Source: a virus. From it: a stretch of 49,010 nucleotides of DNA. Of this stretch, positions 3,800 through 32,885 are shown piece after piece. The stretch lies in IMG/VR virus record IMGVR_UViG_3300033145_000155; one strand, given 5' to 3'. The notes under the pieces are model-generated. The model was not told the origin of the DNA, did no database searches, and saw only the letters and a program-made list of their open reading frames with translations. The translations under genes were made by a program, and so were the position numbers. Numbering within the stretch: the first letter of the stretch is position 1; every line of letters starts with the position of its first letter.

Positions 3800-5116
3800 A
3801 TGACAATTGAAGTAGGTATTGTAGGAATGATTCCAATCGAATCAATAGTTGTCTCAGACAGAGCTCGAGAGGTAATGGGAGATCTTAATGGACTAGAAGA
3901 CAACATGAAGGAAACTGGACTAATCTCACCACTCGCTGTCAAAGACAATGGCAATGGAATTTATAAACTTCTCGCTGGTGAACGTAGGTTTAACATACTT
4001 AAAAAGAACAAGGTTAAGGAAATCCCTGTTCGTATATATAACAAAACCTTATCTGAAATCGAGATGAAGATCATTGAGAAATCTGAAAACTTCTTCCGTA
4101 AAGATATGGAGTTCTGGGAGTTTGATAAACTCACCTTTGAAATCCATGAGATGCAGCAATCTATCCATGGTGTCAAAGCTCCAGGCCCTGGACAGGAAGG
4201 ATGGTCAACTGAAGACACTGGTGATATGATAGGTGGTGTGTCCAAAGCTACTGTGTCTCAATCTATTAAACGAGCTGAAGCACGTGAAGCCTTTCCTGAA
4301 CTATTTGATAATTGTAAGACCGCAGCTGATGCGACTAAGGTACTTAAGAAAGTTGATGAAGCCTTGATTAAACAAGCCATTGCACAAAAGCTTGAAGCGC
4401 AAAAGCCTTCTGGTACTCTTGGTCAATTATCAAAGTGCTACATCCTCAAGGATTTCTTTGAAGGTGTTAAGGAAATCCCTGATGGTATAATGCACTTGGT
4501 TGAGATAGATCCTCCATATGCTATTGAGCTAGGTAAGGCAAAGAAAGTTGAAGGGGAATCTCAATATCAATTAGATGACTATAGCGAAATTGATAAAGAC
4601 ACATATCCAGAATTCCTTTCCAATTTACTCAGTGAAACTTATCGAGTCATGGCTGAGCACTCTTGGCTTATCTTCTGGTTTGCTCCCGAGCCTTGGTTTG
4701 ATTTAGTTTATAAAGCTATCATAGAAACAGGCTTTGACTCAACAAGAATGTGCGGTATCTGGACTAAGCCTTCTGGTCAGTCCAAGCGTCCGGAGATGCA
4801 CTTGGCAAATAGTTATGAAATGTTCTTCTACGCATGGAAGGGTCGTCCAGCGCTGAACAAAGCTGGAAGATCAAACATATTTCAATATTCTCCAGTGCCT
4901 GCAATCCAGAAGACACACCCAACTGAACGTCCAATAGAATTAACAACTGACATTTATGATACCTTTGCTTTTCCAGGGTCTCGTATCTTAATCCCATTCC
5001 TCGGTTCAGGCAATGGATTGATTAGTGCACATCAACTGGGAATGTCTGCAGTAGGATTTGAACTAGGAAAAGGTCATAGAGACTCGTTCTTGGTTAAGGT
5101 TAACGAGATGAAATGA
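3800..5116 (+). CDS. ParB-like N-terminal domain fused to a beta-class N6A/N4C DNA methyltransferase
   Basis: ParB box LLAGERRF. Motif IV is EIDPPYA, followed later by motif I IPFLGSGNG. This order (IV before I) defines the beta class. Confidence 0.85.
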   Translation: MTIEVGIVGMIPIESIVVSDRAREVMGDLNGLEDNMKETGLISPLAVKDNGNGIYKLLAGERRFNILKKNKVKEIPVRIYNKTLSEIEMKIIEKSENFFRKDMEFWEFDKLTFEIHEMQQSIHGVKAPGPGQEGWSTEDTGDMIGGVSKATVSQSIKRAEAREAFPELFDNCKTAADATKVLKKVDEALIKQAIAQKLEAQKPSGTLGQLSKCYILKDFFEGVKEIPDGIMHLVEIDPPYAIELGKAKKVEGESQYQLDDYSEIDKDTYPEFLSNLLSETYRVMAEHSWLIFWFAPEPWFDLVYKAIIETGFDSTRMCGIWTKPSGQSKRPEMHLANSYEMFFYAWKGRPALNKAGRSNIFQYSPVPAIQKTHPTERPIELTTDIYDTFAFPGSRILIPFLGSGNGLISAHQLGMSAVGFELGKGHRDSFLVKVNEMK

Positions 5117-5288: not shown

Positions 5289-7799
5289 ATGAGAAGGACT
5301 TACGTACCTCCATCAGGAAACAAAGATGCTAAATTAGCAGGAGTTGGCGAACAGCCTGGCATGGAAGAGATTCGTTCACGGCCACCCAAACCTTTTGTTG
5401 GCCCTGCTGGACGTGGATTAGAAGAATGTCTTCAGATGACTAAAATAGTGCGCCGTGATCTTTACTTAACCAACGTAATCAAAGACCTTGACGCACCTCT
5501 CAAACATTACATAGACCTCGACAATCGTGGGAATCCAACTATCCACCCCGAAGGCTATCAATACATCCAGGAGCTTGCCGAGGAACTTAAATCCCTAAAC
5601 CTCAACGCCGTAATAGCCTTTGGCAACATTGCTTTACTCGCACTTACAAACCGTGTAGGGATAACCAAGTGGCGTGGGTCTGTCCTTGAATCTACCATTG
5701 TTCCTGGGCTTAAAGTAATCCCTACATTCCACCCTGCCACCTTCATCCCACCAAAGTTCAACTTCCTCAACAGACCTTTGATCTGCGAAGATTTACTCCA
5801 AGCTAAATATGAATCTGAGTTTAAAGAAATAGTTCGCCAACCTCGTGATATAACTGTCAGGCCCACATTTAATGAATCAGTTGATGTGTTAAACTATTGT
5901 TATGAAGCTGGACTGCGTGGCCAGACAATAGGTATTGATATTGAAGTTATCAATGGCGAGGTTGATTGTATATCTTTTGGATGGAACTCTGCTAACTCTA
6001 TCTCAATCCCCTTTCGTTATCAGCAAGGGGATTATTTCAATGTAGATCAAGAATTAGAAATAATGTTGCTTATCTCAAAGATTATCCAAGAGCCTCGGAT
6101 TACCAAGTGTGGTGCTAACTTCATATTTGATACACAGTTTATGTTTCACAAGTATGGCATTGTCCCTCGTGGTATATTACACTGTACACAGATTGCACAG
6201 AAGATTTCCTATCCAGACTTTCCTGCTGGACTAGACTTCGTAACCAACATGCATACAGACATCCCTTACTATAAACAAGATGGTAAACAATGGATGAAGA
6301 TGCAAGCTGGCACCTGGGAGCAATGGTGGAACTATAATGGCATGGACGCTATTGTTCCTGTTGAGGCTATACCTAAACAATTAAAGGTGCTTGAACACCA
6401 AGGTAACATTGAAACTTACGAACGTCAACGTAAGTTAATCAAACCTTTAATCTATATGTCCGAGCGTGGTATTAAACTTGATGTCCAAGGTATGATGGAA
6501 TACAAGGATGAACAACAGGCTGAGTTAGACATCCTCGCCGAAAATCTTAACAAGGAAGTAGGTTATGATATTAACTATAACTCGCCTAAGCAACTAATGG
6601 ACTACTTTTACAAAGAGTTAAAAATCAAACCTTATAAAAAGCGCAATGCTCAAGGTCAGTATAATAACTCAATAGATGTTGATGCACTCAAACGTATATC
6701 AAGGCAAGGTTATAAAGCAGCTCAGACCATGCTAGACATTCGTGGTCTTAGCAAGCGTATTTCAACTTATTTAAACATAGGAAAGGTGGATAAAGATGGA
6801 AGATATAGAAGTTCGTATAAGCCCGTTGGAGCTGAAACAGGAAGGCTCTCATCGGGTGAAACTATCTTTGGAACTGGAGGTAATCAGCAAAACTGGCCAC
6901 ACGATTTACTTCGATTTTTCCTCTTTGATGAAGGATATATCGGATACTCTTTCGATCTTAGTCAAATCGAAAATAGAATTGTGGCGTATGTTGGTGGAGT
7001 CCTCCCACAAATCGAAGCCTTTGGACAAGGAATAGACCTTCATCGTCTTACTGCTTCAATCATCTTCAACAAACCTTACGATCAAATTTCAGGTGAAGAT
7101 GGTTCTTCTGAACTTGGTGATGGTAGACAGTCCGAACGCTATTGGGGTAAGAAAGGTAATCACGCAATCAACTATGACATCGGCTATAAGAAATTTGCTC
7201 TTGTCAATGAGATGAATGAAACCGAGGCAAAGCAAGTTCTCGAAACAGTCCATCGTGGGTATCCTCAAATTCGAGGCGGTTATCAGATAATCATTCAAAA
7301 CATGCTTAAGAAAAATAGAATGGTTACAAACTTATACGGTCGTAATAGGTTATTCCTCGGCCCTATTATTCCATCCTATCCTGGCGTGCCAAAGGGTGCA
7401 TGTGAGAGTACATTCCGAGATGCTTATGCACATCTTCCACAATCAACTTGTGCTGACAAGATCAATGAACAAGGTATTGAATACATCTATTACAATCAAG
7501 ATTTATTCAAATACATTGAACTCCTTGCTCAGATACATGACTCGATTGTGTTTCAAGTTCCTTTGTCAATTCCCTGGGAAGAACATGCTAGGATGTTATT
7601 ACTAATTAAGCAATCGCTTGAACAGCCTATTTATTGGCATGGGACAGAGATTAAAACTCCATGTGATTTATCTATTGGTAAGTGTATGTGTAAGGACATG
7701 ATGATAGAATTGAAAAGTAAGGAAATTCCATCTGATAATGACTCATTAGCAACCAAACTAAAAATTATCTACAACACAATTAAAAATAATGGAAACTAA
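5289..7799 (+). CDS. Family A DNA polymerase with an N-terminal UDG-family-4-like domain and a 3'-5' exonuclease region
   Basis: UDG-like motifs GEQPGMEE...FVGPAGRGL and FHPATF. Pol motif A DLSQIENRIVA, motif B-like KKGNHAINYDIGY, motif C QIHDSIVF. Confidence 0.85.
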   Translation: MRRTYVPPSGNKDAKLAGVGEQPGMEEIRSRPPKPFVGPAGRGLEECLQMTKIVRRDLYLTNVIKDLDAPLKHYIDLDNRGNPTIHPEGYQYIQELAEELKSLNLNAVIAFGNIALLALTNRVGITKWRGSVLESTIVPGLKVIPTFHPATFIPPKFNFLNRPLICEDLLQAKYESEFKEIVRQPRDITVRPTFNESVDVLNYCYEAGLRGQTIGIDIEVINGEVDCISFGWNSANSISIPFRYQQGDYFNVDQELEIMLLISKIIQEPRITKCGANFIFDTQFMFHKYGIVPRGILHCTQIAQKISYPDFPAGLDFVTNMHTDIPYYKQDGKQWMKMQAGTWEQWWNYNGMDAIVPVEAIPKQLKVLEHQGNIETYERQRKLIKPLIYMSERGIKLDVQGMMEYKDEQQAELDILAENLNKEVGYDINYNSPKQLMDYFYKELKIKPYKKRNAQGQYNNSIDVDALKRISRQGYKAAQTMLDIRGLSKRISTYLNIGKVDKDGRYRSSYKPVGAETGRLSSGETIFGTGGNQQNWPHDLLRFFLFDEGYIGYSFDLSQIENRIVAYVGGVLPQIEAFGQGIDLHRLTASIIFNKPYDQISGEDGSSELGDGRQSERYWGKKGNHAINYDIGYKKFALVNEMNETEAKQVLETVHRGYPQIRGGYQIIIQNMLKKNRMVTNLYGRNRLFLGPIIPSYPGVPKGACESTFRDAYAHLPQSTCADKINEQGIEYIYYNQDLFKYIELLAQIHDSIVFQVPLSIPWEEHARMLLLIKQSLEQPIYWHGTEIKTPCDLSIGKCMCKDMMIELKSKEIPSDNDSLATKLKIIYNTIKNNGN

Positions 7800-8996: not shown

Positions 8997-9011
8997 ATTG
9001 TTAAACGATCT
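8987..9011. repeat. PE25 copy 4, at a convergent gene junction
   Basis: AGATCGTTA-AATTGTT-AAACGATCT. Overlaps the stop codons of both convergent genes. The 23-mer 8992-9014 is identical to 16783-16805. Confidence 0.85.
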
Positions 9012-12000
9012 TATTGACCACTCCTTAATTTTCCAACCTCCTCTCTAAATCCAGGAGACATGACACCACCAGCTTTAATAACTGTCCCTAATTCTTCATA
9101 CAGTTCTTTACGTTCCTCATCTGAAGCAGAGTTAAGTCTGTCAACATAAACCTTGGCTCTCGCTTCAGTTGTAAGACCTTTCAACCGTAACCAGAAAGTA
9201 CGATTAGGTAATCCCTTTATCTTTTCTTGGAATGTGAATCTATCCTTAAGTCTATCATATGTATCCTTGTCTTTAAACTCCCTCATATAATCTATAACTT
9301 CTTTCCTACTTACATTATCCTGATAGAGGTAGCCTTCAACTCTCATATCCAGCCCACGATTCTGAATCCATCTTTGAATATCACTTGCTTCCTTAGCCTC
9401 ATCTATCTTCTCTCCATATTGTGAGTAAGGATTAGTTACACTAAAGAATCTTTTAATAATAGGTATCTTAGACAATACCATTGCAAGGTGCTGTTCTTTC
9501 TTGTTCTTAGGAAGATCACCAAATGATGCATCGTAGCCTTGACCAAGTAAATAAGACCATAGTGTTCCACTGGTTGTTAATTCCTCTATCATATACTTAG
9601 TGCGTTCAGGAGACATCCCAGTTGCTTCACCAAAATCTATAAATGTTTGAGGTGTTTGACCAGGAATATATTCCTCTTTACTTTCTGGCCAACTAAAAGG
9701 TTTATCAGACTTCCTCCAAATATCTTCATTCATCCAGAAGTCTTTATTAGTAACATATCCAAGCGTTCCACTAATAGTAGGTGGCAACTCAGTTACCCCA
9801 ACAGGGCTTTGCTCCTTAAGTGAATCAACTATTCTATTAACATCTACTTCATTGCCAAGCCATTTATCTACACTACCTTCAAAGAATGTTTTGAAGAACT
9901 TCTGACCAGGGTCAATAGGTATTTTAATATAAGGATACCTCATCTGACCATGCTCATCTTCAAATCCAAAGTCGTCACCTAAAGTAAGACAAAGATTATT
10001 TTGTTCATCTATATTTCCTTTAAGTGCTTGTGAACTTTTTGGATGCATCTTGTTCTTAGCTATATAAAGGCCAGCTACCAATGCACCAAACTGTGCAAGT
10101 TTATAAGTAGAGCTTAAAGCTGTCCCACTCCCTGGTTTGAAAGATCTAAACAATCCTCTTGTACCTACAACAGCTGCATTAAGATAAGGAAAAGCATTAT
10201 CAGCTGCTTTAGTAATCCCTCCACCCTGACCAAAGTCCATATAGTCTCTTGCAGCAAATGTAGCTTCCTGTGTAATCTTTGGATTTTTATTAGCTTCTTC
10301 AAATGTAAGGCCTTGTTCCTTTGCACGATTTCTAATAACCCTATCTCTAATTGCCAGCCTAGTCATTATCTCAGACGTCTCACCAAAGTAACCTAAGAAA
10401 TTATATATAGCATCTATTGATCCTTCAACATGCCTACCACGTTGGAGTAGTCTACCTTGGTGAACAAGAAATTCCATCCCTCCACCTTCTTCAATATACT
10501 TTTCATAACGTCCCTTGCGAAGCGCTGCATCTGTAAGTATAGTTGCTAAGTCCCTACCTATCTGCAAACCAAATACTGGCATGTGAGGACTATAAACAGA
10601 TGTCCATTTTCCATCTTTAAATTCCCTAGCAGCAAACCAAGTATGCAATACATCTCTTGGTAAATTAGCCAACGCAAATCCCCAGTTAATACCAGTAGCA
10701 AATGTCCTTAACACTGGTGATGCACTAGCATACCTCAACACCTGCCCCATCTTATAACTTATCTCTGGGTTATTAGTTATCCACTCCTTTGACATTTCAG
10801 GTGAGATATAAAGTTCCTGGCGCTTACCTTTTTCATACACTAAAATTCGATGCCATCCAGTTGGTATCATATCCTTTGGGTCTTCTTTAATCCTAACAAA
10901 GGGATTAGTATTATCAGCCTTTGCAACTTCAAGCAAACTTAGATTAGCTCTATTATTCAATATACGTCCATAAGATCTATTAAATACTTCAAGAGCCATA
11001 ATCTCACTTGAGGATTCATAGATGTCAGTCTCCTTACCTTTTGACAAAGCCTCAACACCTGAACTGTAAATAGTTCTATCAGTCTTCTTCAATTTTGGGA
11101 CTTGTTTATCGTAGATTTCTACCAACTTAATCCTTCGATAGTTATGTGAAATAAGTGCATCATATTCTTGTTCAGAAATCAACTCAGCATCCAACAAATC
11201 TTTCAATGGTTTCTTCATCCAATCAAAGTATGCTCCAACTTTACCCCCCACACTTCCATCGTCCTTTAAATGATATAAGTTGTAAGCCTCAGCATCTGTA
11301 TAATCTCTCACTCCATTAACTTTTTTATATTTAAATATCTCCATTCTAGCAGCACATTCAGCTGGGGTATATCCTTCTGGATAGGCAAATTCTTTAGGTA
11401 ACTTGTACTTACTTATATCCAACATCCTTACTGACAATGCTAAGGTATCAAATACTATCTTATCACCTTTACTCATTCCACTGTAAGCTTCCTTCCTCAT
11501 CTGCTTTAACATATTGGCCGAGAGTGAACTAGCTCCTTTGGATAGGTACATCCTCTGTATTATATCATAACCTACATCACCAAGAGCTTCAAGCAACTTA
11601 CCACGGATATTTCCTGAACGGTCTACAAATGAACGATTAAAGTTTTCTCTTAACATCTGAGCAGCTTCTTTAGGTCTGAAAGCTTTCATCCCCTGAGATT
11701 TTCTTACATAGTCAAAACCTTTCCTAGCCCCTTCAATTAACTGCTTAGCACCTTCACCTGCTGCACCTGTAATGTCGTAGAGTTTGGTTGGTTCAGATCG
11801 TTTTGGAATTAAACGATCTGCTTTATCTAACCCTATCCCATACTTATCAAGTAATACATTTTCCTTTAACGGCCTCTTTGTCTTTTCAAATGTAAGGAAT
11901 TCTGAGTGAGCAATTCTAGGTATCCTTTGCTCTCCTCCCTTTAAATCCACTAAAAGACTACCTTTATTCACATACACAAACTTACCTAAATATCTCATAC

Positions 12001-14710
12001 CATATTTAGTAGCAAACCTTTTTATATAATCAGACACAGGAATATTATATGACCTAGCTTTATCATACCCTTTCATTGTAGATACTCTTTCTCCTGTAGA
12101 CTTAGATATGTCTTGAATTTTAATAGTTACCCTACCATAAGGCTTTAATACCCTAGCAAACTCTTTCATAGCTCCATCATGATAAGCTAGTAATGCATCT
12201 AAGCTTTCAAAACCTCCAAATCTTTTTGCCATTGTAGGTATCTGTTTACCAACAACTAAATATGGAGGATCACTTATTATTGAATTTATAGATTGATCAT
12301 CAAGAGGTATATGTTTAGATACATCAGCCTTTATTGTGTCTTTAGTCTGAGGTACTTTATCCATCTTAATTATAGGTCTTATTTCATTAGGTAGATTTTT
12401 CCATATTTTACCAGAGCTATAATTTACATCTAAGTCTACCTTACCTTTATGCATTAGGTTTATAATATTAGATAATAACTCATCATGGTTCTTACTCCAT
12501 GACTTAATTACTTTCTTAATATTTTTAGATGCTTGAGTTGGGTCTACCCCTGAATATAAGGTATTGCTACTATCATCTTTTATAATATTATCTACTGCAT
12601 CTAAAGTGGACAAATCTAAACGCTCAGTTCGTTTGACATCCAAACGATCTGCATTCCTTGCCCACTCCGCAGCGTCACTAACCGTCTCCTTCCAAACATT
12701 GAAGTCTTCACCTTTATCAAACTTATCTCTAACTTCATCAGCCCTTATAGCTAATTCACTAAGGTGATTCCTAATCTCTTCAATAGGAAGTTCTTCTCCA
12801 TTAAGCCATCTATTAACATCGTTGATTAGCTTACCAGTAAATAAGTCAGGGTCTCCCAAAACATTCTTAATTCGCTCTTTGTAAAGTTTATGTAATGTAT
12901 TAGTCTCTTCAACTGACTTGTCACGGAAAGGTGATTGGTCAGTGGATAATTCAGCAGGTTTAGGAGTACCTGTTTGAGTATCAAGTTCGGTGGTAAGTTC
13001 TTCACCTTTAGGTTTAATTCCTCTTGACCTTTCAAGCTTTTCCCACTGTTCTTTCACAGTCATCTTGTTGATTTCTTTGACTGGATAACCAGCTCGATTA
13101 AGTTCATGTTTTTCATCTTTGGTTAACTTAACTTCTTCTAATATATGCTTAAGTCTTTCTATATCTAACTTACTATAATCTGTTTTACCTTGTAACATAC
13201 TCTTGTCAGTAATTTCCCTATACTTATTAAAGAACATTGATCCCTCTTCTGTAAATACATCTGGAAAGGTATCAATCTTATCAGCAAGCCCACTACTTAA
13301 AATATAGTTATGAATACTTGTCATTATACCTTTTCTTTGATATTCTTTTAATGTATGTAAACCTTCTGTATAGGCTACATTATCATATATAGATACGTCT
13401 GCAGATCCAACTATTTTTTCTCCAATCTTTGCCTGTATTTTAAATTCTTTAGGGTCTTTAGTACTAATTACATTATAAGATATTTCTTCACCTTCAATCT
13501 TTTCTTTCTTTGTTTTCTTCTTTGCCTTCTTTTTTGCCTCAATTTTTTTCTCCTTGATTAAGTCTTGGCCAGTAGTTACTTTTTTCTTAACAGCCTTTTC
13601 TTTCTTAATCTCCTTAACCTTCTTCCCTTTCTCCTTCAAATCACCTTTTACTACACTCTCAGTATCTATATTCTCATTCAGTTTTCTTGCTTCAAGTTCT
13701 GCTTGTACCTTTTCAACATCTAAGACTTTCTGCTGTGCTGCTTTAACTACTTCATCAGGAATCCTATCAATCTCTTTTTGTTTAATAACTATTTTCTCAG
13801 CCTTATCCAAAATAGGCTTAGCGTCCTTTGCATATTGTTCATGACCTCCTTTGTATGTCCTACCCATGACAACTATTCCAACAACATCAGCTATAAAATG
13901 CAAAGCTCCTCTAACATTAGGCATGTATTCAAACATGTCTAACTCAGCCAATGTATGAATAGGCGTTGATGCAGCTGTGTAAGGTGCCATGCCTATCTCA
14001 CCTATAATAGCACTATAGTCTGTAGGTTCTTTCTCTCCACCTTCACCTACAGCTTTCTTACTTAAATACTTACCAAAGGTCATAGGTGATTGTAGTAATC
14101 TATCAAATGGTGCAACTATACTCTCATGCCATCTTCCCGCACCTTTCTCCATTCCTTTACTAGCAGCTTCATAAAGATCAAGGAGAGTGAAATCCTCTGA
14201 CTTGAGTATCCTAGAACCCATCTCCTTTGATGTTTCAACAGCTGCAGACAATGCACCTTGAGCAAATCCAGGAAGGGACATAGCAAAGGTAAGTGTCCCT
14301 CTCACAGCATCATAAGGATTCTTAGCCATTCCCCACAGTTGGTTAAGCGCTTCCATTGCACCACGCTTATCATCATCTGTCATGGTAGGAGGTTGGAATA
14401 AAGTAGAATCAGTAATACCTTCTCCAAAAGCCATCTCACCTACCTTTTCATAGAAAGGCTTTGGTGCAGCCGAGATCATCTGATTCATTATATGAGGATC
14501 TTCATATAAGTCAGAAACAGGTGCAGTCGAAGCTTCGAATTTAGGGACAGGAGCAAGCAACTCAGGTTGCGGCTGCCTGAGGAGGTCAAGCCCGGAAGTT
14601 ACTTGACCTCGGCCTTGACCCTGTCCCTGTTTCAGTAAATCCATTTCAGATTGTTTTGTTATTAAACGATCTGATTGTTCACCCCTTAATAAATCAAGAC
14701 CTGACGGCAT
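9011..14710 (-). CDS. Giant multidomain (polyvalent-type) virion/internal protein, ~1,899 aa, with a GNAT-like module and a DPPY methyltransferase-like module
   Basis: Start set at the MPSGLDLL ATG at 14710 (SD GGAGGAA 8 nt upstream). GNAT-like region HTLKEYQRKGIMTSIHNYIL. MTase-like region SIISDPPYL...RVLKPYGRV...AHSEFLTFEK. It is the last gene of the structural operon, after internal-protein-like genes. Confidence 0.75.
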   Translation of the reverse strand: MPSGLDLLRGEQSDRLITKQSEMDLLKQGQGQGRGQVTSGLDLLRQPQPELLAPVPKFEASTAPVSDLYEDPHIMNQMISAAPKPFYEKVGEMAFGEGITDSTLFQPPTMTDDDKRGAMEALNQLWGMAKNPYDAVRGTLTFAMSLPGFAQGALSAAVETSKEMGSRILKSEDFTLLDLYEAASKGMEKGAGRWHESIVAPFDRLLQSPMTFGKYLSKKAVGEGGEKEPTDYSAIIGEIGMAPYTAASTPIHTLAELDMFEYMPNVRGALHFIADVVGIVVMGRTYKGGHEQYAKDAKPILDKAEKIVIKQKEIDRIPDEVVKAAQQKVLDVEKVQAELEARKLNENIDTESVVKGDLKEKGKKVKEIKKEKAVKKKVTTGQDLIKEKKIEAKKKAKKKTKKEKIEGEEISYNVISTKDPKEFKIQAKIGEKIVGSADVSIYDNVAYTEGLHTLKEYQRKGIMTSIHNYILSSGLADKIDTFPDVFTEEGSMFFNKYREITDKSMLQGKTDYSKLDIERLKHILEEVKLTKDEKHELNRAGYPVKEINKMTVKEQWEKLERSRGIKPKGEELTTELDTQTGTPKPAELSTDQSPFRDKSVEETNTLHKLYKERIKNVLGDPDLFTGKLINDVNRWLNGEELPIEEIRNHLSELAIRADEVRDKFDKGEDFNVWKETVSDAAEWARNADRLDVKRTERLDLSTLDAVDNIIKDDSSNTLYSGVDPTQASKNIKKVIKSWSKNHDELLSNIINLMHKGKVDLDVNYSSGKIWKNLPNEIRPIIKMDKVPQTKDTIKADVSKHIPLDDQSINSIISDPPYLVVGKQIPTMAKRFGGFESLDALLAYHDGAMKEFARVLKPYGRVTIKIQDISKSTGERVSTMKGYDKARSYNIPVSDYIKRFATKYGMRYLGKFVYVNKGSLLVDLKGGEQRIPRIAHSEFLTFEKTKRPLKENVLLDKYGIGLDKADRLIPKRSEPTKLYDITGAAGEGAKQLIEGARKGFDYVRKSQGMKAFRPKEAAQMLRENFNRSFVDRSGNIRGKLLEALGDVGYDIIQRMYLSKGASSLSANMLKQMRKEAYSGMSKGDKIVFDTLALSVRMLDISKYKLPKEFAYPEGYTPAECAARMEIFKYKKVNGVRDYTDAEAYNLYHLKDDGSVGGKVGAYFDWMKKPLKDLLDAELISEQEYDALISHNYRRIKLVEIYDKQVPKLKKTDRTIYSSGVEALSKGKETDIYESSSEIMALEVFNRSYGRILNNRANLSLLEVAKADNTNPFVRIKEDPKDMIPTGWHRILVYEKGKRQELYISPEMSKEWITNNPEISYKMGQVLRYASASPVLRTFATGINWGFALANLPRDVLHTWFAAREFKDGKWTSVYSPHMPVFGLQIGRDLATILTDAALRKGRYEKYIEEGGGMEFLVHQGRLLQRGRHVEGSIDAIYNFLGYFGETSEIMTRLAIRDRVIRNRAKEQGLTFEEANKNPKITQEATFAARDYMDFGQGGGITKAADNAFPYLNAAVVGTRGLFRSFKPGSGTALSSTYKLAQFGALVAGLYIAKNKMHPKSSQALKGNIDEQNNLCLTLGDDFGFEDEHGQMRYPYIKIPIDPGQKFFKTFFEGSVDKWLGNEVDVNRIVDSLKEQSPVGVTELPPTISGTLGYVTNKDFWMNEDIWRKSDKPFSWPESKEEYIPGQTPQTFIDFGEATGMSPERTKYMIEELTTSGTLWSYLLGQGYDASFGDLPKNKKEQHLAMVLSKIPIIKRFFSVTNPYSQYGEKIDEAKEASDIQRWIQNRGLDMRVEGYLYQDNVSRKEVIDYMREFKDKDTYDRLKDRFTFQEKIKGLPNRTFWLRLKGLTTEARAKVYVDRLNSASDEERKELYEELGTVIKAGGVMSPGFREEVGKLRSGQ
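11795..11819. repeat. PE25 copy 5 (intragenic, perfect arms)
   Basis: AGATCGTTT-TGGAATT-AAACGATCT. Read on the minus strand it encodes DRLIPKRS. Confidence 0.85.
12626..12650. repeat. PE25 copy 6 (intragenic)
   Basis: AGTTCGTTT-GACATCC-AAACGATCT. Encodes DRLDVKRT. Confidence 0.75.
14648..14672. repeat. PE25 copy 7 (intragenic, near the 5' end of the giant gene)
   Basis: AGATTGTTT-TGTTATT-AAACGATCT. Encodes DRLITKQS. Confidence 0.8.
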
Positions 14711-15812
14711 ATCTAACTTCCTCCATATCTCCAGATGGCCATTCAACTGTCCAAATTATAGTCTTACCATCTTCAGCCCATTTAACTTCTTTAATCTTTC
14801 CACCACCGGCAGTGATCTTATCTTCAATAAACTGTACTTTAACCTCAGAAGTTTTTTGCTCTTGTTCACCGGTCTCCATCCTAAACAATTCATTTTGAAC
14901 TTCATCAGAACTCATATATTTATTAAGGTCTTCAGTCCACTTAGGATCTTTGAAATAAGTCTGACCTTTTAATCCAGCCTTAGCTTTTATCTCAGTTAAT
15001 TTCTCTCCAAGAGTCAAACCACCACCAAGAGCTGTAATGTCTCTAAGCCATGTATTGAAATCTGGCTCAGTGTCATTAGGTCCTCTATAACCACCTGCTA
15101 CAGCCTCTTCATAATCCTTCTTATGGCCAGTCCAAGCAGAGTTTTGATACTCTTCAAAACTACCTTTAAATGAACCACCTGCTTCAGTTTGAGCATATTC
15201 GTAATTTTTAATAGCATTTGTACGCTCATCCTTATTTGCAGACTTATACCAATCAAGGTATTGCTTAGTAGTCAATTTAATATCTGTCCCAGGTATAGTA
15301 ATTGAAGGCGTCTTCTCACCAATTAATGCATCATAGTAATCCATCATCTTCTGCTTATACAATGTATCAGACACATCACTAACCTTTTTCTGTCTCAATG
15401 CCTCGACACTTTGAGCACCACTAAGGGCACTGGAAATGTCTTGAGGTGTCAGGCCAGCCAAATCGGCACCTGAGATACTTGGCTGACTAGAAACGAAAGG
15501 GTTTGCCATTCCTCCTGGTTGCTTGATAGGAGCAAGACTTTGATCTGGGGTGAACATGCTACCTCCAGACAAAGTGCCAAGAGCAGAAGCTGGAATATCC
15601 ATCTTTATTCCATCTTTACTAATTGCCCCTTTTGTATCATCAGGGCCTAGCATCTGCTGTAACAGCTTCATGTAATTCTGTGCAGCGATGTTCTGCATAG
15701 TAACTTTATTCACATTAGCTCCTATTGGCTGACCAGCTCCAATGTCCTGTCCTGCAGCTGCAAGATACTGCAAGAACATTTTGTTTTGCATGAGATTTTC
15801 TAAACCTTCCAT
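14694..15812 (-). CDS. hypothetical structural protein (372 aa), possibly an internal virion/ejection protein
   Basis: SD GGAGG. Sits between a Gly-rich membrane-like protein and the giant protein. Confidence 0.6.
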   Translation of the reverse strand: MEGLENLMQNKMFLQYLAAAGQDIGAGQPIGANVNKVTMQNIAAQNYMKLLQQMLGPDDTKGAISKDGIKMDIPASALGTLSGGSMFTPDQSLAPIKQPGGMANPFVSSQPSISGADLAGLTPQDISSALSGAQSVEALRQKKVSDVSDTLYKQKMMDYYDALIGEKTPSITIPGTDIKLTTKQYLDWYKSANKDERTNAIKNYEYAQTEAGGSFKGSFEEYQNSAWTGHKKDYEEAVAGGYRGPNDTEPDFNTWLRDITALGGGLTLGEKLTEIKAKAGLKGQTYFKDPKWTEDLNKYMSSDEVQNELFRMETGEQEQKTSEVKVQFIEDKITAGGGKIKEVKWAEDGKTIIWTVEWPSGDMEEVRYAVRS

Positions 15813-15824
15813 AATTAATTCCTC

Positions 15825-16763
15825 CTATAAAAATGCAGATGCAGCGCCAAGAAATGCTCCAACGCCAGCACCAACTCCAGTGCCTATTCCAGGCACAACA
15901 CTTCCAACCATTGCCCCAGCAGCTGCCCCACTCAATGCACCACCTATTGCTGACTGTGCTTGAGAGGGTCCTGAGGTAGCTCCAGGTGTAGCTGTACCAC
16001 CACCAATAGCTGCTAGTAAATTACCTCCATGTTGAAACACTTCCAGATCCCAAAGTGCGTCAGACTCATCTATTTTAAGATTAGCATCCATCTCTTCCTT
16101 CTTAGCTACAATTTTAATTCTGTTAACATCAGCTATCATCTGAGATGCAGTCTTTTGATATTCAAGTTTGAGTGCAATCAGACGAATGGCATCATCTGAA
16201 AACGCCTTCATATGTAAATCAGCTGCATACTTTGCAACTTGCCTATCCTGATTTTCTTCAATGTTAGCTCTGCCAATGACAAAGGCAGAACTCATCACTG
16301 CATTTATATCCAGCATGCCTGCATTGAACCTTGGTAGAATTTCAGCTATTAACCTGGCATCTAAATCAGCAGCAAATTCATCCACTGCATCATCTATCCT
16401 ATCAGTATCAAGAACATTACTTATCAATGTGTCAAGGGTTGTTCCAGTACTTAGTAATGTAACAAGTGACTGCAATTCATCAGGAGCTGCAAGCATTGTG
16501 ACTAAGTCAGCATCAGGATCGTATGCATTCTGAAGTGTCCAAGGTGAGTTGCCCAGAGCTGAATTCATCACATCAGTTATTGATTCAGTTATTGTATCAA
16601 CACCTGAGTTATCCAACCAATCACCATGGATAGTTTCTAAATATGCTGAATGACTAACAGCACCAGAACCTCCACCTCCACCGCCACTCCCACCTTTGAA
16701 ACATACTAATGGATAAAATCTATATCCATAATCTTGTTTAAATTTCCACCAATTTATATTCAT
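15825..16763 (-). CDS. hypothetical structural protein with a poly-Gly tract and a Gly/Ala-rich hydrophobic C-terminus (possible internal/ejection protein)
   Basis: Start moved to MNINWW (SD GGAGA 7 nt upstream); the track start at 16856 overlaps the upstream gene. The C-terminus is GGALSGAAAGAMVGSVVPGIGTGVGAGVGAFLGAASAFL. Confidence 0.6.
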   Translation of the reverse strand: MNINWWKFKQDYGYRFYPLVCFKGGSGGGGGGSGAVSHSAYLETIHGDWLDNSGVDTITESITDVMNSALGNSPWTLQNAYDPDADLVTMLAAPDELQSLVTLLSTGTTLDTLISNVLDTDRIDDAVDEFAADLDARLIAEILPRFNAGMLDINAVMSSAFVIGRANIEENQDRQVAKYAADLHMKAFSDDAIRLIALKLEYQKTASQMIADVNRIKIVAKKEEMDANLKIDESDALWDLEVFQHGGNLLAAIGGGTATPGATSGPSQAQSAIGGALSGAAAGAMVGSVVPGIGTGVGAGVGAFLGAASAFL

Positions 16764-16777
16764 CTCAGTCTCCATTA

Positions 16778-16802
16778 AGTTTGTTAAATTGTTAAACGAT
16801 CT
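16778..16802. repeat. PE25 copy 8
   Basis: AGTTTGTTA-AATTGTT-AAACGATCT. Overlaps the stop codon of the 16792 gene. Confidence 0.75.
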
Positions 16803-17244
16803 TATCAATGTTAAATGAAATAAAAGTATAATCAGCACTACCCCCAAGATAGTCAACTACTTTAACAATATAAGGCTCTTGAGTATAAGCAACTATTCGA
16901 CTGCATCCTTTTGCTTTAGCATACTTTGCAATAGTCTGAAGTCCATGAATCCAACTAGACTCATCAACTGAATTATATCCATATAAGCAATAGATTAATA
17001 AACTCTTTGAACCACTAGCATCATCATATAAAAATCTTGTTAAAACTATCCCTTCAAAATTGTTTTCATTCTCACTTTTATTATATGAAGCCCATACAGT
17101 AATTGTTCCATTGAGGGCAGATGCTAAAATCCTATTCATCTTATCTGGATGCTCATTTACGATGGGTGGTAAAGATTGTTCAACTGCATACTTTATAATA
17201 TCCCATAGTCTTGAAATTTGATCTGGTAACAGTCGTGTTAGCAT
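16792..17244 (-). CDS. hypothetical protein (150 aa), weak acetyltransferase-fold resemblance
   Basis: TAATG overlap with the upstream gene. The strand-helix pattern LLIYCLYGY...IAKYAKAKGCSRIVAYT is GNAT-like, but there is no clear Q/RxxGxG/A motif. Confidence 0.55.
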   Translation of the reverse strand: MLTRLLPDQISRLWDIIKYAVEQSLPPIVNEHPDKMNRILASALNGTITVWASYNKSENENNFEGIVLTRFLYDDASGSKSLLIYCLYGYNSVDESSWIHGLQTIAKYAKAKGCSRIVAYTQEPYIVKVVDYLGGSADYTFISFNIDKIV

Positions 17245-18653
17245 TATTTTTGTCCTCGCAACGAGCTAGGTGGAGAATATACTCCTCTTATCCCTCTTAA
17301 GTCAGTCATTTTAAATCTTATCTTAATATATTTTATAGGTGAAATAACTGCAACGTAATCAAAGTTTAACCTAACTACAAATTCATTCCCTGAGGCAGTG
17401 ATAGCTGCAATCCCTTCATTGTTTAAAGGTACTTCACTTGTATATCCCCAGACATCTAATGTATTAGCCCAGCCAATAGCTGCTTTAGCACCAAAGGTAA
17501 TTAAAGTATCTGATTCAACCGAACTAATTGTTTTCTGTCCTCGATAACCAAGGTCGAATATTGTAGTGGTTAGTGAAGGTATATAGTCATCAACTGTGTT
17601 GGGTAACATAATTAGTTCATCATCGTAATTACTCATAGTCCATAATGCAGAAGGGTGCTGTGGAACTTCTGTTAATCCATAAGGGGAAAGTAAGAAAGTT
17701 TTCTTACTATTACCAATATAAAAGTCATTCTTAATTCGATCATACTTAACAATTATATCTTCATTTTCATCTTCAAGGTCTTTCATATATCTATAATATC
17801 CAAGTTCTTTAATTCCTTTACTCGTCATTTCCCTTATTATATAATCAGTGCCTACAAACACATGACGTCGGAGGTCTCCATCAATAGCGCCACGGTTAAC
17901 TAGTCCAACGTCCTCCAACTCAGTAAATCCAAAGGTGGTAACAGGACTACCAACAGGCCTTAACATTGTAATCCCTTTAGATGAATAACCTATTACATTG
18001 TCACCTAATCGTCTAACATGGTAAACCTTCCCACCATAAGGACAACGTCGATAACCTGCTTCATTCTGTCTATCAGGTGTAAAGTCCATTTCACCAATCT
18101 TAGACCAGCAATAGAATGCCTCATCACAGTCATGCCATGCACTTACTATGCCTCCACCTACTGCTTGACCCTTAAAGTTACACACAGTTCTCATCATGGG
18201 AATAGTTGCACTTGCAGCTACTTCATGCCAGTCTCCTAATCCCACATCCCAATAGATCATAATAACTCCATTGGTCATAAAAGCGTAAAGGCCAAAGTCT
18301 GCAACTTCCATCAAAGACCCAATGCCAAAGGTTAATTCATCTATATCAAATATATGAGTGGCTACATAATCATCTGAAATTAAATATACCTTATCCTCAT
18401 GGTTGAGTAAAGCATCTCTGATGATTAAGAAGTTATATTTTTCACCTACAATAAACTGTGGGAATGGCCAAGAGTATTCCATGTCAACTACACCAACCAA
18501 AGGATCATCATCTGAAATTTTATATCCTTCAAGGTCATTCTTACCTACACGAAATCCAAGACATTCAAACAACCACTCATCGTTCACTGGTATAGAACGT
18601 TCAGGGCTAAGACCTTTTTTTAAAGAATCTATAGTTAATTCATATTCACGCAT
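17244..18653 (-). CDS. hypothetical structural protein (469 aa), possibly tail tubular/nozzle
   Basis: Size and position in the structural operon only. Confidence 0.5.
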   Translation of the reverse strand: MREYELTIDSLKKGLSPERSIPVNDEWLFECLGFRVGKNDLEGYKISDDDPLVGVVDMEYSWPFPQFIVGEKYNFLIIRDALLNHEDKVYLISDDYVATHIFDIDELTFGIGSLMEVADFGLYAFMTNGVIMIYWDVGLGDWHEVAASATIPMMRTVCNFKGQAVGGGIVSAWHDCDEAFYCWSKIGEMDFTPDRQNEAGYRRCPYGGKVYHVRRLGDNVIGYSSKGITMLRPVGSPVTTFGFTELEDVGLVNRGAIDGDLRRHVFVGTDYIIREMTSKGIKELGYYRYMKDLEDENEDIIVKYDRIKNDFYIGNSKKTFLLSPYGLTEVPQHPSALWTMSNYDDELIMLPNTVDDYIPSLTTTIFDLGYRGQKTISSVESDTLITFGAKAAIGWANTLDVWGYTSEVPLNNEGIAAITASGNEFVVRLNFDYVAVISPIKYIKIRFKMTDLRGIRGVYSPPSSLRGQK

Positions 18654-19152
18654 AGTAACCCTCTCTACATAAATACTTATCTGAATTCCATATTCTAAGA
18701 ATTGTTGAACGGCTTACTTTAAACATCTTAGATACATAAGAAGCTGAGAATTTATATCTTTGATGGCGAAGATACATTCCTTTGTCTACAGGAATACACA
18801 GTTTTCTAATCAGCCATATCTCACCTTCATGAAGCTTTAATTGACCTCCTCCTCGATTAAATAGATTCCTTTTTGCCCTATCCATATTATTGTCTCCATA
18901 AGTTCCACAGTACAAATGCTTAGGATTAACACATTTTCTATTATCACATTTGTGAAGAATTAGTTTACCTTTTGGTATAGGGCCATTAACAATTCTCCAA
19001 GATACTCTATGAGCATAATCCAACTTTTCACTAACACTGAATTGTCCATATCCATTAACTATATACGCTTGCCATTCCCAACAGTCATCTTCACCTTTAA
19101 CATCTACCTTAGCCCAAAATCTTTCCAATAGTCTTTGAGATAACTCCCTCAT
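18646..19152 (-). CDS. HNH homing-type endonuclease
   Basis: HKCDNRKCVNPKHLYCGTYGDNNMD (HNH_3-type motif). Confidence 0.8.
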   Translation of the reverse strand: MRELSQRLLERFWAKVDVKGEDDCWEWQAYIVNGYGQFSVSEKLDYAHRVSWRIVNGPIPKGKLILHKCDNRKCVNPKHLYCGTYGDNNMDRAKRNLFNRGGGQLKLHEGEIWLIRKLCIPVDKGMYLRHQRYKFSASYVSKMFKVSRSTILRIWNSDKYLCREGYYA

Positions 19153-30445: not shown

Positions 30446-32812
30446 TTACCATGATCCTTCGACATACACTGGATACATATATAAATATGTGCCAGCTGAC
30501 CGTTTAACGCTTACTCTTACATATATCATGTATCCATTTTCAAGTTCATATGCGTAATCAGATGTAGTAAATACCCCTGAGCCTGTAAATGTTTGATCTA
30601 TGCCTATCTGTGTCACAGTCCCATTGTACTGCTGTTTATACAACTGTACTAAAGTTGTAGTTGCTTCGTCATCTGTGTTAACAAATATAGTAATAATGTT
30701 AATGATAGCCTCATTTCTTACTGGAATTTCAAAATCCCACACATCATATACTCCATCTCCTGCAACGCCACTACTTCGCACATCACCAGCAGGCCAGGTC
30801 ATTGTTCCATTAGGACTTTCACCATTAAATCTTCCATGAAGTGTAATTACTCTATTATTACTCGCAAACTCAGCACCTGAAAATTTATCTCCAGGAATCA
30901 AATGCCAATTATACCCATTAATATTATACGATGTTGTAAAGCCAGATGACGCCATACAACTTAAAAAAACATCTCTGGTAGTCCCAGCATCATCATACCC
31001 TGTTCCATTCGCACTTGTATTTTCAGCTACAATTCCAATGAAATTGTTATAGTTGTTACCTTCCTCTGAAGCTACTTTAACTCCATAGGTAGCGGCATCC
31101 ACTGAATAACAATCAATCATACCACTCATAAAAACATTTCTTGAGTTCCGCTGATAAAGATAAATCCCGCCTTTTTCTGACTGAGAACGAAGACCAACAA
31201 AGGAATTATCGTAAATTATACCAGGAGATACTCCTTGAAGTAAAAACCCATAAGAATTACTTTGTGAATATAAATTATAGTATCTATTCGCTGCTAACTC
31301 ACCATAGAAAGTTATTCCATAGCAATTTGTATATGCATTATTTGACCTAACATCTTCAACAAGAGATAGATAGGCATTTTTTATCCTAATACCTCCAGCT
31401 CTATTATTATTATCAAAAAAAATACCTCCTAAATATGTATTCTGTGCGCAGTTATCCACTGCACTTCCACCCCAATCAAGCAAATATTCACCTACTGGGA
31501 AACTATTACCAGCTTTAATAATAGATAAACTTTTATTACCAGAAATATACTGGTTCGTTGAAGATATTGCCGTGTTCACAATATAAGTTTTCAACCCAAA
31601 ATAGACTGGTTTCTCTGTAGCTAATGCTTTATAAATTGCATTATAATCGTCAGTAACTCCATCACCTGTTGCTCCCCACCATTCAGGTTTGACCCCACTG
31701 CATGCAGATTCTCCAAAAGCAACACTCCCATCCCCGCTAAACACCTGATAAAGTCCAGCAGAGAAAGGGCCGTTGATGGTGAGAGTTTTTGTGTTAGCGA
31801 CTGTTAGGATTCTTCCTTTAGAAGGTATTAACAAAGTAGTGTTTGCATTGATAGTACAATCATCAACAATTGTAGATGCAGTAGATACTTCTAACTCAAC
31901 ATTAGCAGCACCTATTTTGGTAACAGCTATTTCAAATGTTGAGAACCAAGCAGACTTTACTTTAGTCCCTGAGGCGAAAGTTATAGAACCATCACTTGAG
32001 ATAATTTGATTATCTCCAGCAATCAACTGAGAATTTAATGTAAGAGTCCTTCCAGCATCAATGCTAAGAACTCCTCCATTGAATATCTTAAGTGATAAAT
32101 TACTAGGAATAGTATTATCATAACTTATTACATTCTCATCTGAGACTTCCAAAGTAACTTCTTCATTCTCAACCTGAGCAACTACAGAACGAAGACTATT
32201 AAACCAATCAATCTTTAGTATAGTTCCATCTAAGAAATCATAGTCACCAAGCCCAGCAAAGATTTGATAGTTTCCAGCTTCTATATTTTTAATATTAGAG
32301 AAAACTACTTCTGAATCAACTTGGATGATGTTATTAGGTGAATCCCACTTTAATGTAACATCATTACCCAGTGCACAGGTAGTAGTTATATGAGCTTGAG
32401 AGGTTACTAACAAAGTAACCGAGTCATCATTGGTTAGGTTAATAGCTTTGTAAAGGCTAGGAAACCAAGCTGAGCGAATAACAGATCCATCAGCGAAGTC
32501 TACATCTCCAGCGCCTGTGAAGATTTGACGATCTGGTGCTCTGATATTTCTGGTGTTGATAGTTAGTTGGCCAGAGTTAACTATTGCACCATCTCGCTCG
32601 AAAGCAAGAGTGACGTTGGAAGGGATTGTTAGAGCTGTTACAGTCTGCGGTGAGACAATTTTAATAGTTCGTTCATTAGCACCAACTGCACTTATTGCAT
32701 CGTTGAGAGTTTCGTAAGCACGAGTTACTATTATGTCAGGGAAGAATTCTGCATATGCAGGAGTGACAAATAGTGCTAAAGCTAAAATTATTGAAAGTAT
32801 AAGTTTCTTCAT
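30446..32812 (-). CDS. secretion-signal-bearing beta-helix (pectate-lyase-fold) protein with four N-terminal tandem repeats; tailspike/depolymerase-like
   Basis: Start moved to MKKLILSIILALALFVTPAYA-EF (SD GGAG). Four 86-94-aa repeats each end in a W-F/W motif. The last leads into EWWGATGDGVTDDYNAI, typical of pectate_lyase_3-type domains. Confidence 0.65.
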   Translation of the reverse strand: MKKLILSIILALALFVTPAYAEFFPDIIVTRAYETLNDAISAVGANERTIKIVSPQTVTALTIPSNVTLAFERDGAIVNSGQLTINTRNIRAPDRQIFTGAGDVDFADGSVIRSAWFPSLYKAINLTNDDSVTLLVTSQAHITTTCALGNDVTLKWDSPNNIIQVDSEVVFSNIKNIEAGNYQIFAGLGDYDFLDGTILKIDWFNSLRSVVAQVENEEVTLEVSDENVISYDNTIPSNLSLKIFNGGVLSIDAGRTLTLNSQLIAGDNQIISSDGSITFASGTKVKSAWFSTFEIAVTKIGAANVELEVSTASTIVDDCTINANTTLLIPSKGRILTVANTKTLTINGPFSAGLYQVFSGDGSVAFGESACSGVKPEWWGATGDGVTDDYNAIYKALATEKPVYFGLKTYIVNTAISSTNQYISGNKSLSIIKAGNSFPVGEYLLDWGGSAVDNCAQNTYLGGIFFDNNNRAGGIRIKNAYLSLVEDVRSNNAYTNCYGITFYGELAANRYYNLYSQSNSYGFLLQGVSPGIIYDNSFVGLRSQSEKGGIYLYQRNSRNVFMSGMIDCYSVDAATYGVKVASEEGNNYNNFIGIVAENTSANGTGYDDAGTTRDVFLSCMASSGFTTSYNINGYNWHLIPGDKFSGAEFASNNRVITLHGRFNGESPNGTMTWPAGDVRSSGVAGDGVYDVWDFEIPVRNEAIINIITIFVNTDDEATTTLVQLYKQQYNGTVTQIGIDQTFTGSGVFTTSDYAYELENGYMIYVRVSVKRSAGTYLYMYPVYVEGSW

Positions 32813-32885
32813 TTTTATCTCCTTAGTTTTTCTCTGTTCTAAACAATTCTTGATAAACACCACCTCTGCATATGAGTATTTAGTT

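Follow-up and report, generated by a model that had tools for sequence, protein, structure and literature searches.

The question raised by IMG/VR virus record IMGVR_UViG_3300033145_000155, a 49,010-bp phage contig (the window, meaning the whole stretch of DNA analysed), is what kind of protein is encoded by the giant gene that closes its structural operon. Positions 9011-14710 on the minus strand form a single complete open reading frame (ORF) of 1,899 aa. A preliminary description made from the sequence letters had proposed a polyvalent-type virion protein with a GNAT-like and a DNA-methylase-like module and ~1,000 further residues of unknown function. The gene limits given there were confirmed, with the ATG at 14710, a GGAGGA upstream and the stop codon at 9011-9013. 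The polyvalent-type reading was upheld by GNAT and methyltransferase profiles, both of which were found when the possibility that neither would appear was checked, and by homology to LPD38-bearing phage proteins. At least two effector or enzymatic modules in one ORF, a link to LPD38 and a place among structural genes are among the marks of a large polyvalent protein, and these three were found here. The protein is probably a phage-type large polyvalent protein on an LPD38-type chassis, in which three backbone modules are combined with inserted enzyme cargo, and it would be delivered with the DNA. The gene and the parts of its product are as follows.

9011..14710, minus strand: complete ORF of the polyvalent protein (stop codon 9011-9013; frame open over 9011..14746)
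14719..14724, minus strand: GGAGGA ribosome-binding site, 8 nt upstream of the ATG (14710), read directly from the sequence
14567..14704, minus strand: three S(G/E)(L/M)DLL(R/K)xxQ repeats (residues 3-48), from the sequence
13646..14710, minus strand: backbone module 1, conserved N-terminal region (residues 1-355), found by BLASTP in 64 of 119 relatives
13499..13645, minus strand: Lys-rich linker (residues 356-404), part of variable slot A, from the sequence
13196..13498, minus strand: putative minimal GNAT-like module (residues 405-505), slot A cargo, from Pfam Acetyltransf_1
12611..13003, minus strand: backbone module 2, middle helical domain (residues 570-700), found in 78 of 119 relatives
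11846..12550, minus strand: putative small S-adenosylmethionine (SAM) methyltransferase module (residues 721-955), slot B cargo, from PHROG 24333
9014..11833, minus strand: backbone module 3, C-terminal, ~940 aa and mostly helical (residues 960-1899), from homologues, an AlphaFold2 model and Foldseek
9458..10048, minus strand: LPD38-like segment (residues ~1555-1751), mapped from LPD38 matches in the relatives P0070, P0116 and P0119

A search with the full protein followed by one with a C-terminal profile found more than 110 metagenomic phage proteins which share residues ~960-1899 at 41-83% identity. BLASTP mapping placed the N-terminal ~355 aa in 64, the middle domain in 78 and the C-terminal module in 119 relatives. 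Where long, the contigs of the family are ~45-53 kb. The exact sequence of the protein was recorded once (P0001). The ~1,000 residues which the preliminary description had left without a function thus appear to be a conserved LPD38-type backbone, and it is the enzymes that are the swappable extras.

The C-terminal module was modelled from a 52-sequence alignment. The model was mostly helical, with a mean predicted local distance difference test (pLDDT) score of 72.7 and a predicted template-modelling score of 0.64. A PDB sequence search of the module, as single sequence and as profile, found no relative. With Foldseek, the best PDB matches of the model were helical membrane proteins with E=0.13 and a template-modelling (TM) score of ~0.1, which is meaningless. 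Against BFVD there were 59 matches at E<1e-3, the best at 2.5e-25, with a typical TM score of ~0.5 over ~1,000 columns. All of the BFVD matches listed were viral and, where a chunk or name was given, they were later chunks of long phage proteins. They were often named 'Large polyvalent protein associated domain 38', and others took their names from N-terminal cargo (RelA/SpoT, LT_GEWL, type I methylase). Escherichia phage PTXU04, Ralstonia phage Alix and Cellulophaga phage phi46:3 were among them.

Sequence links to LPD38 were found through relatives. In P0070, which is 58% identical to the protein, Pfam LPD38 was matched at 28.6 bits (cut-off 27) over the equivalent of residues 1570-1739. The distant homologue P0009 has Pfam LPD38 directly after the aligned stretch. 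BLASTP of the polyvalent protein against the LPD38 region of P0119 gave E=6e-8, and the C-terminal part of P0119 in turn matched PTXU04 gp25 at E=1e-100. The same part of P0119 also matched giant proteins of Pelagibacter, Vibrio, Thalassomonas, Shewanella and Bacillus phages. These phages mostly have genomes of ~34-40 kb and several are podophages. Annotations of several of the matched proteins read N6 DNA methylase, RelA/SpoT or large polyvalent protein. The LPD38 assignment is well supported by these sequence and model comparisons and is transitive, because the protein's own sequence misses Pfam LPD38 at E≤1.

The arrangement of the other parts was examined in the 62 members that contain all three backbone modules, with slot B counted as filled when it held at least 80 aa. 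Slot B was occupied in 20 of the 62 members by inserts of 11 sequence clusters. Inserts in slot A formed 19 sequence clusters. N-terminal extensions were present in eight members, one cluster of four being the members with Pfam SLT. A C-terminal extension was present in one member and carries a Pfam phage lysozyme. In total there were at least 35 insert sequence clusters at four sites in the 62 members. Cargo found across the family and its distant relatives also includes GGDEF, a polyvalent-type kinase and LPD3.

Single relatives differ from the protein by whole modules. P0003 has no GNAT and no methylase, its flanks join directly and it is 72-83% identical elsewhere. P0002, the closest relative, is a mosaic, with identities of 92% (N-terminal region), 98-99% (GNAT), 66% (middle domain) and 75% (C-terminal module). 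In slot B, instead of the methylase, P0002 has a ~400-aa LPD23-containing segment with HEIQH (HExxH) at residues ~700-1060. This segment may be cargo of metallopeptidase type, judging from the motif. P0004 and P0039 have a different methylase in slot B (PF01555, a weak match, with HPATFP, DIFGGIGN and TSPTY motifs). The GC content of the GNAT is 29.4% and that of the methyltransferase 31.8%, compared to 38-41% in the backbone. At third codon positions the values are 18-21% in the cargo and 28-29% in the backbone. The low GC of the cargo suggests acquisition from a lower-GC source and, taken with the mosaic identity of P0002, fits the acquisition of cassettes by recombination. A match to an RNA polymerase domain (N4 vRNAP-like) was looked for in the Pfam, PHROGs and NCBIfam scans and was not found.

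The slot A cargo is a GNAT-like module. The preliminary description had placed a GNAT-like segment at 13211-13486, and this was supported with revised bounds of 13196-13498. Pfam Acetyltransf_1 (cut-off 20.7 bits) was matched at residues 417-471 with 22.7 bits in the scan of the whole protein and with 27.2 bits (E=5e-6) by the isolated module. The alignment spans only positions 28-86 of the 116-position model and the module is ~100 aa. It covers beta-strands, motif A, alpha3, beta5 and alpha4. Motif A reads QRKGIM at residues 458-463 (nt 13322-13339). When 1.84 billion representative proteins were scanned exhaustively with phmmer, the module had only five relatives, namely P0002, P0121 (1,635 aa), P0122 (489 aa), a 139-aa solo protein and a tandem pair in a 216-aa protein.

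In an alignment of six modules motif A Q-R-x-G and a downstream G..F were invariant (6/6). The last position of motif A was Met, Ala, Ser or Thr across the module family, with no fixed Gly or Ala. Acetyltransf_1 was matched by five of the six members, with a best E of 2e-8, and one member matched the minimal-GNAT family Acetyltransf_CG (E=0.003). When the six-module profile was compared to PDB sequences nine of the ten best matches were GNAT-fold entries (best E=0.0013). The tenth was 4zm6, which is not a GNAT, and haemagglutinin HA2 chains and UPF2 also appeared lower down. The GNAT-like signal appears real from these profile matches, and the module is predicted to be a minimal ~100-aa GNAT from a very rare family. 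Minimal GNATs of the Acetyltransf_CG / COG2388 type likewise have the beta4-alpha3 motif A core (QRKG) and ~100 aa. GNATs are listed among the cargo of polyvalent proteins, and two RimI-like families were described by Iyer et al. (PMC5512222). Set against those RimI-like GNATs, by description only, the module here is a minimal core.

The slot B cargo is a methyltransferase-like module. PHROG 24333 'DNA methyltransferase', a family which has no curated cut-off, covers residues 727-945 at E=5e-23 over profile positions 25-228 of 238. The closest families, PHROG 24333, 6025 and 954, are all annotated as DNA methyltransferases. The motifs DPPY, RVLKPYGRV and AHSEFLTFEK named in the preliminary description were all present, with DPPY (motif IV) at residues 814-817 (nt 12260-12271). 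By tblastn the module is homologous end to end, at 29-34% identity, to free-standing small phage proteins of ~165-225 aa. These solo homologues were Pseudoalteromonas phage H103 gp51 (200 aa, E=4e-16), an ORF in LR756504 and Bacteroides phage BS-TP2 gp39 (164 aa). P0066 carries a methyltransferase module 60% identical to that of the polyvalent protein. The blocks of a five-sequence alignment follow the order D-x-D-x-x-Y-x-x-G, A-D, DPP[YFH]L, RVLxxxG, and the motif I Asp and the DPP are invariant in all five. The PHROG 24333 solo methylases and H103 gp51 share D-x-[DC]-x-x-Y-x-x-G, DPP[YF]L and RVLxxxG with the module; there they are the product of a separate early or middle gene, whereas here the unit is embedded in 1,899 aa.

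The class of the methyltransferase was revised. The preliminary description had assigned it to the beta class and, as the SAM-binding motif could not be found, had suggested that it was truncated. A candidate motif I, VDLDVNYSSG (residues 758-767, nt 12410-12439), precedes DPPY by ~50 aa, and the unit ends ~130 aa after DPPY. The same region reads FDVDVTYGNG in H103 gp51, where the GxG is kept. The candidate was recognised from the profile alignment to the tRNA m2G10 methyltransferase Trm11 (E=1.4e-4), which runs from motif I (LLDPMCGTGSF) through a D-x-P-Y motif IV to an RVLKxGG strand and sets VDLDVNYSSG opposite LLDPMCGTGSF. Besides Trm11 only the alignment to 2zfu ('Cerebral protein 1') reached the motif I region; we take this entry to be an RNA methylase. 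A DNA N4C methyltransferase, CcrM, TTHA0409, M.TaqI and M.RsrI aligned over motifs IV-VI only. A circularly permuted beta-class (IV...X-I) methylase was rejected, as the order is I then IV and the solo homologues are 165-225 aa. Truncation was not borne out either, since homology to the solo phage methylases of 165-225 aa extends over the whole length. Because of this whole-length homology and the Trm11 alignment from motif I the module is predicted to be a complete, compact ~220-aa class-I unit of the order I then IV with a degenerate Gly loop.

Pfam N6_N4_Mtase was matched below threshold by all five sequences; that of the polyvalent protein scored 20.7 bits (cut-off 26.7) over model positions 1-109 of 221 only. 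No helicase or LPD36 partner was found in the Pfam, PHROGs and NCBIfam scans of the polyvalent protein. A word-indexed search with the 235-aa module gave no match, though the collection holds the parent protein and P0066, and such a null with a short query does not mean absence. In an AlphaFold2 model of residues 1-1000 the methyltransferase was partly formed, with the expected helix-strand-helix-strand-strand pattern after DPPY. Foldseek of this model against the PDB gave a list led and dominated by methyltransferases, the best at E=0.037 and none at E<1e-3, which lends weak support to the assignment. The substrate could be DNA (N6-adenine or N4-cytosine), RNA (m2G) or a protein amine.

The N-terminal backbone module begins with the three short repeats SGLDLLRGEQ (residues 3-12), SEMDLLKQGQ (21-30) and SGLDLLRQPQ (39-48). 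They had been described earlier as three GLDLL(R/K)xxQ repeats; three DLL(R/K)xxQ copies are present, with MDLL in the middle one. In 20 of 75 full-length relatives two or more strict SG[LIVM][DE]LL copies fall within the N-terminal 120 aa, against a background of 0.016 per 120 aa elsewhere in these proteins. Copies of the S-G-(L/I)-(D/E)-L-L motif are 12-29 residues apart and are kept in many family members. Some members have other triple repeats instead, for example three copies of SLTDQMF or of (S/T)(I/F)E(E/D)M(I/L)G. It is a speculation that the SG(L/I)DLL repeats might serve as a capsid-targeting or docking signal.

The remainder of module 1 is predicted to be helical, with a pLDDT of 58-73 for residues 130-345, and the middle module reached ~80 for residues 590-690. 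Strong transmembrane helices were looked for by hydropathy in the polyvalent protein. Only two weakly hydrophobic Gly/Ala-rich segments were found, at residues ~140-158 and ~263-281 (Kyte-Doolittle 1.26-1.32), and membrane insertion is not claimed because both are weak. The Lys-rich linker reported earlier was present, Lys making up 42% of residues 356-410. The stretch YQRKGIMTSIHNYIL listed in the preliminary description was also found in the ORF.

The polyvalent gene is the last of a minus-strand structural operon which holds TerL, the portal and the major capsid protein. Gene order confirmed this position, which had been proposed earlier. The ATG overlaps the 3' end of the upstream 372-aa gene by 17 nt. 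On the other side a convergent plus-strand primase gene stops at 8996, 14 bp from the polyvalent gene, and no terminator was found between the two in 8997-9010. The plus-strand replication genes which converge at ~9.0 kb encode a Sak4-like protein, a dCMP deaminase, a ParB-N6_N4 methylase, PolA and the primase. A giant gene which is last in the structural operon and faces primase and polymerase genes is also found in L008, which encodes a 57%-identical relative, and in Desulfofustis phage LS06-2018-MD01. No near-identical genome was found for the window by megablast among 50,697 phage records.

The preliminary description had compared the setting to T7-like phages. The head genes are of SU10 type and not of T7 type, the major capsid protein matching Pfam SU10_MCP (E=6e-35) and the portal SU10_portal (E=3e-14). 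No tape-measure or tail-tube gene was recognised in the window. By sequence, a probable tailspike or depolymerase is a pectate-lyase-like protein of 805 aa. The lineage looks short-tailed because of the SU10-type head genes, the lack of a recognised tape-measure or tail-tube gene and the probable tailspike. Two small proteins are encoded directly upstream of the polyvalent gene.

14694..15812, minus strand: 372-aa Gly/Ala/Gln-rich protein, candidate companion internal or ejection protein by its position
15825..16856, minus strand: 343-aa protein with a C-terminal glycine-zipper tail, candidate membrane-active ejection protein from sub-threshold Pfam matches

A family search for the 372-aa neighbour gave no match. 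At its position L008 has a 375-aa gene and the Desulfofustis phage a 487-aa gene, the latter by position only. The 343-aa protein matched Gly-zipper_YMGG (E=0.0012) and P22_gp7, a DNA ejection protein (E=0.0065), both below cut-off. The 343-aa ORF as listed begins with TTG and a hydrophobic leader, and its C-terminal 60 residues are an extreme Gly/Ala zipper. Its true start may be an internal Met (METEMNINWW...).

Several other genes of the window were compared to L008. A ParB_N + N6_N4 DNA-methylase fusion of 438 aa is encoded at 3800-5116 on the plus strand and at the same position in L008; a 'ParB-like partition protein' gene of the same size lies at the equivalent position in the Desulfofustis phage. 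This fusion is therefore a second, conventional DNA methylase besides the giant-protein module. An HNH_3 homing-type endonuclease of 168 aa (18646-19152, minus strand; PHROG 1872 E=1e-30, Pfam HNH_3 E=2e-13) lies inside the structural operon, between a 157-aa and a 469-aa gene. The equivalent 157-aa and 468-aa genes of L008 are 43 bp apart with no gene called between them, so the HNH gene looks like a mobile insertion. The region 30446-34532 (minus strand), upstream of the terminase, encodes the 805-aa protein, whose pectate-lyase-like segment is a beta-helix, and a 548-aa protein with weak glycosyltransferase/rhamnosyl-transferase matches, which is unusual beside structural genes. In the DNA polymerase of L008 (16794-19325) the exonuclease and polymerase domains of PolA are joined to a domain of the UDG family; the polymerase of the window lies at 5289-7799 on the plus strand. 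A dCMP deaminase is encoded by both. The UDG-polymerase fusion of L008 and the dCMP deaminases may point to an unusual nucleotide metabolism.

The closest known systems are LPD38 proteins of short-tailed phages. LPD38 is restricted to polyvalent proteins of phage type (PMC5512222). PTXU04 is a podovirus (PMC6563267), and knock-down of its gp25 strongly lowers plating (PMC11879866). The LPD38-bearing gp47 of phi24B, a short-tailed Stx phage, is abundant in virions by proteomics, is invisible in the map and has been proposed as an ejection protein (bioRxiv 10.64898/2026.04.10.717836). PTXU04 gp25 (2,198 aa) and phi24B gp47 (2,811 aa) are, like the protein described here, giant multi-domain proteins encoded with late or structural genes, and they likewise have variable enzymatic domains N-terminal to a conserved module. 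The C-terminal module matched the PTXU04 protein in fold at E=3e-12 with a TM score of 0.47 over ~960 columns, and in sequence by way of P0119. The differences are also clear. Identity is only 13-16%, and the MuF metallopeptidase, LPD1, LPD5, RelA/SpoT and kinase domains of those proteins are absent here. The protein here also comes from a distinct uncultured ~49-kb lineage with SU10-type head genes.

DarB of phage P1 is a virion methylase which protects DNA in cis (PMC5512222, PMC12810830). It resembles the protein here in that the methyltransferase is part of a presumably virion-internal protein of ~2,000 aa, and the proposed logic of DNA protection is the same. The DarB methyltransferase is EcoKI/TaqI-like, is preceded by LPD36 and is nearly always followed by a SWI2/SNF2 helicase (PMC5512222). 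In contrast, the protein here has no helicase and no LPD36, and its ~220-aa methyltransferase lacks a target-recognition domain and is kin to H103 gp51.

SU10 gp20-24 were present in virions and gone after genome release by mass spectrometry and are thus ejection proteins (PMC9509320). Among the structural genes of SU10 the one for gp24 (1,473 aa) is the largest and again comes last, in front of convergent genes. Because no sequence similarity was found, the analogy is confined to gene position. Homology to the SU10 ejection proteins gp19-24 was rejected after phmmer, family hidden Markov models and hhalign all gave negative results. T7 gp16 and SU10 gp20 carry SLT/lysozyme-type domains, as do some relatives of the polyvalent protein. 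Likeness to P22 gp7 is limited to the Gly-zipper tail of the 343-aa neighbour and its sub-threshold match.

In the proposed mechanism a few copies of the polyvalent protein would be packaged in the capsid along with the two upstream small proteins. They would leave through the tail, either before the DNA or together with it, and the backbone would join a trans-envelope ejection complex. The enzymes would act at the point and time of DNA entry because they are tethered to the ejected backbone. The methyltransferase would most likely methylate the incoming DNA (or another amino-group substrate) and blunt restriction, as P1 DarB does. The GNAT module would acylate a host protein or a small molecule. 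Cargo would be exchanged among related phages by recombination. Catalytic activity and the substrates of both modules are predicted here from sequence, and the anti-defence role is likewise putative. A more far-reaching form of the proposal is put forward tentatively and may well not hold. It treats the whole family as a modular delivery chassis in which a fixed three-part backbone is ejected and enzymes are swapped at four sites by recombination, with SGLDLL repeats used for docking and the mini-GNAT an undescribed effector which acylates a component of host defence or translation.

Several results weigh against the reading of the protein as a delivered polyvalent protein with enzyme cargo. 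Packaging and ejection are argued by analogy. SU10 gp11-13 and gp16-24 showed no similarity to the polyvalent protein or its neighbours by phmmer, hmmsearch or hhalign. The PDB includes podovirus ejection-protein structures and none fits the C-terminal model, and LPD38 was not reached at E≤1 in the Pfam scan of the protein itself. A peptidase which could release the modules was not found in the polyvalent protein by Pfam, PHROGs or NCBIfam. Of the canonical GNAT fold the module is missing the N-terminal arm and the final strands, and its motif A ends in Met and not in Gly or Ala. Motif I of the methyltransferase is degenerate, with YSSG in place of GxG, no target-recognition domain is visible in the module and its best profile match in the PDB is an RNA and not a DNA methylase. 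The model of residues 1-1000 is unreliable (mean pLDDT 47.7), and its GNAT region is low-confidence coil and helix (pLDDT <45) in which a GNAT fold was not confirmed.

Some of these points would be explained by a purely structural, ejection-conduit or tape-measure-like protein, an analogue of T7 gp16 or SU10 gp24 in which the GNAT and methyltransferase are dead passengers or spacers. The degenerate motif I, the Met at the end of motif A and a GNAT cut to ~100 aa fit this explanation. Many relatives also keep the backbone with empty slots, and P0003, closely identical elsewhere, is without both modules, which are therefore dispensable for the core function. It is nevertheless quite improbable. 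Motifs of catalytic type are kept across homologues only 28-62% identical (DPP[YFH], RVLxxxG and the motif I Asp in 5/5; Q-R-x-G, G and F in 6/6), and both modules exist as free-standing genes. GNATs of ~100 aa are a recognised type, Acetyltransf_CG, which one family member matches. Different enzymes have been gained repeatedly at the same sites, which speaks for cargo under selection.

Another explanation keeps delivery but lets the methyltransferase act on host RNA (for example m2G in tRNA or rRNA) or on a protein amine, not on DNA, and so reprogramme translation or inactivate a defence protein. Trm11, the best PDB profile match, reaches the motif I region, as otherwise only 2zfu does. There is no target-recognition domain and no helicase partner; according to Iyer et al., DNA methylases of polyvalent proteins almost always come with a fused SF2 helicase (PMC5512222). 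The genome also already encodes the separate ParB-N6_N4 DNA methylase. The nearest PHROG families are, however, annotated as DNA methyltransferases, N6_N4_Mtase was matched by all five homologues below threshold, and five DNA methyltransferases were also among the PDB matches. DPPY is moreover the classic N6-adenine motif, and a substrate other than DNA is on balance unlikely. The protein might also be an unpackaged late cytoplasmic multi-enzyme that modifies, before the cell lyses, either progeny DNA or host factors; its place at the operon end would then be incidental. Peptide fingerprinting of PTXU04 virions assigned only gp7, gp10, gp11 and gp12 (PMC6563267), and packaging in the present lineage rests on analogy. 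Against this, the LPD38 protein of phi24B is abundant in virions by mass spectrometry (bioRxiv 10.64898/2026.04.10.717836), and the gene has the same position as SU10 gp24, an ejection protein verified by that method (PMC9509320). The peptidoglycan hydrolase domains of relatives make sense only at cell entry, and a neighbouring gene encodes the Gly-zipper, P22-gp7-like tail. A protein which is never packaged is therefore very improbable.

The reading of the protein as a delivered polyvalent protein fits the framework of Iyer et al. (2017), in which variable cargo defines the class, and overturns no current ideas. New here are the layout of cargo slots in the subfamily, the recognition of its conserved C-terminal module and the SG(L/I)DLL repeats at the N-terminus. 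For annotation the lesson is that the family is marked by the bulk labelled 'unknown', to which the recognisable enzymes are accessory. The conserved and structurally unsolved part is the LPD38-type C-terminal module of ~940 aa. It is believed that polyvalent proteins enter the host cytoplasm before any other phage weapon, and almost none have been studied experimentally. The family offers a natural experiment, with one scaffold in more than 110 environmental phages and defined cargo sites. Relatives which differ by single modules, such as P0003 with none and P0002 with the same GNAT and another slot B, make module-by-module tests of anti-defence function feasible. If the family is indeed a modular delivery chassis, it could be re-engineered to deliver chosen enzymes into bacteria.

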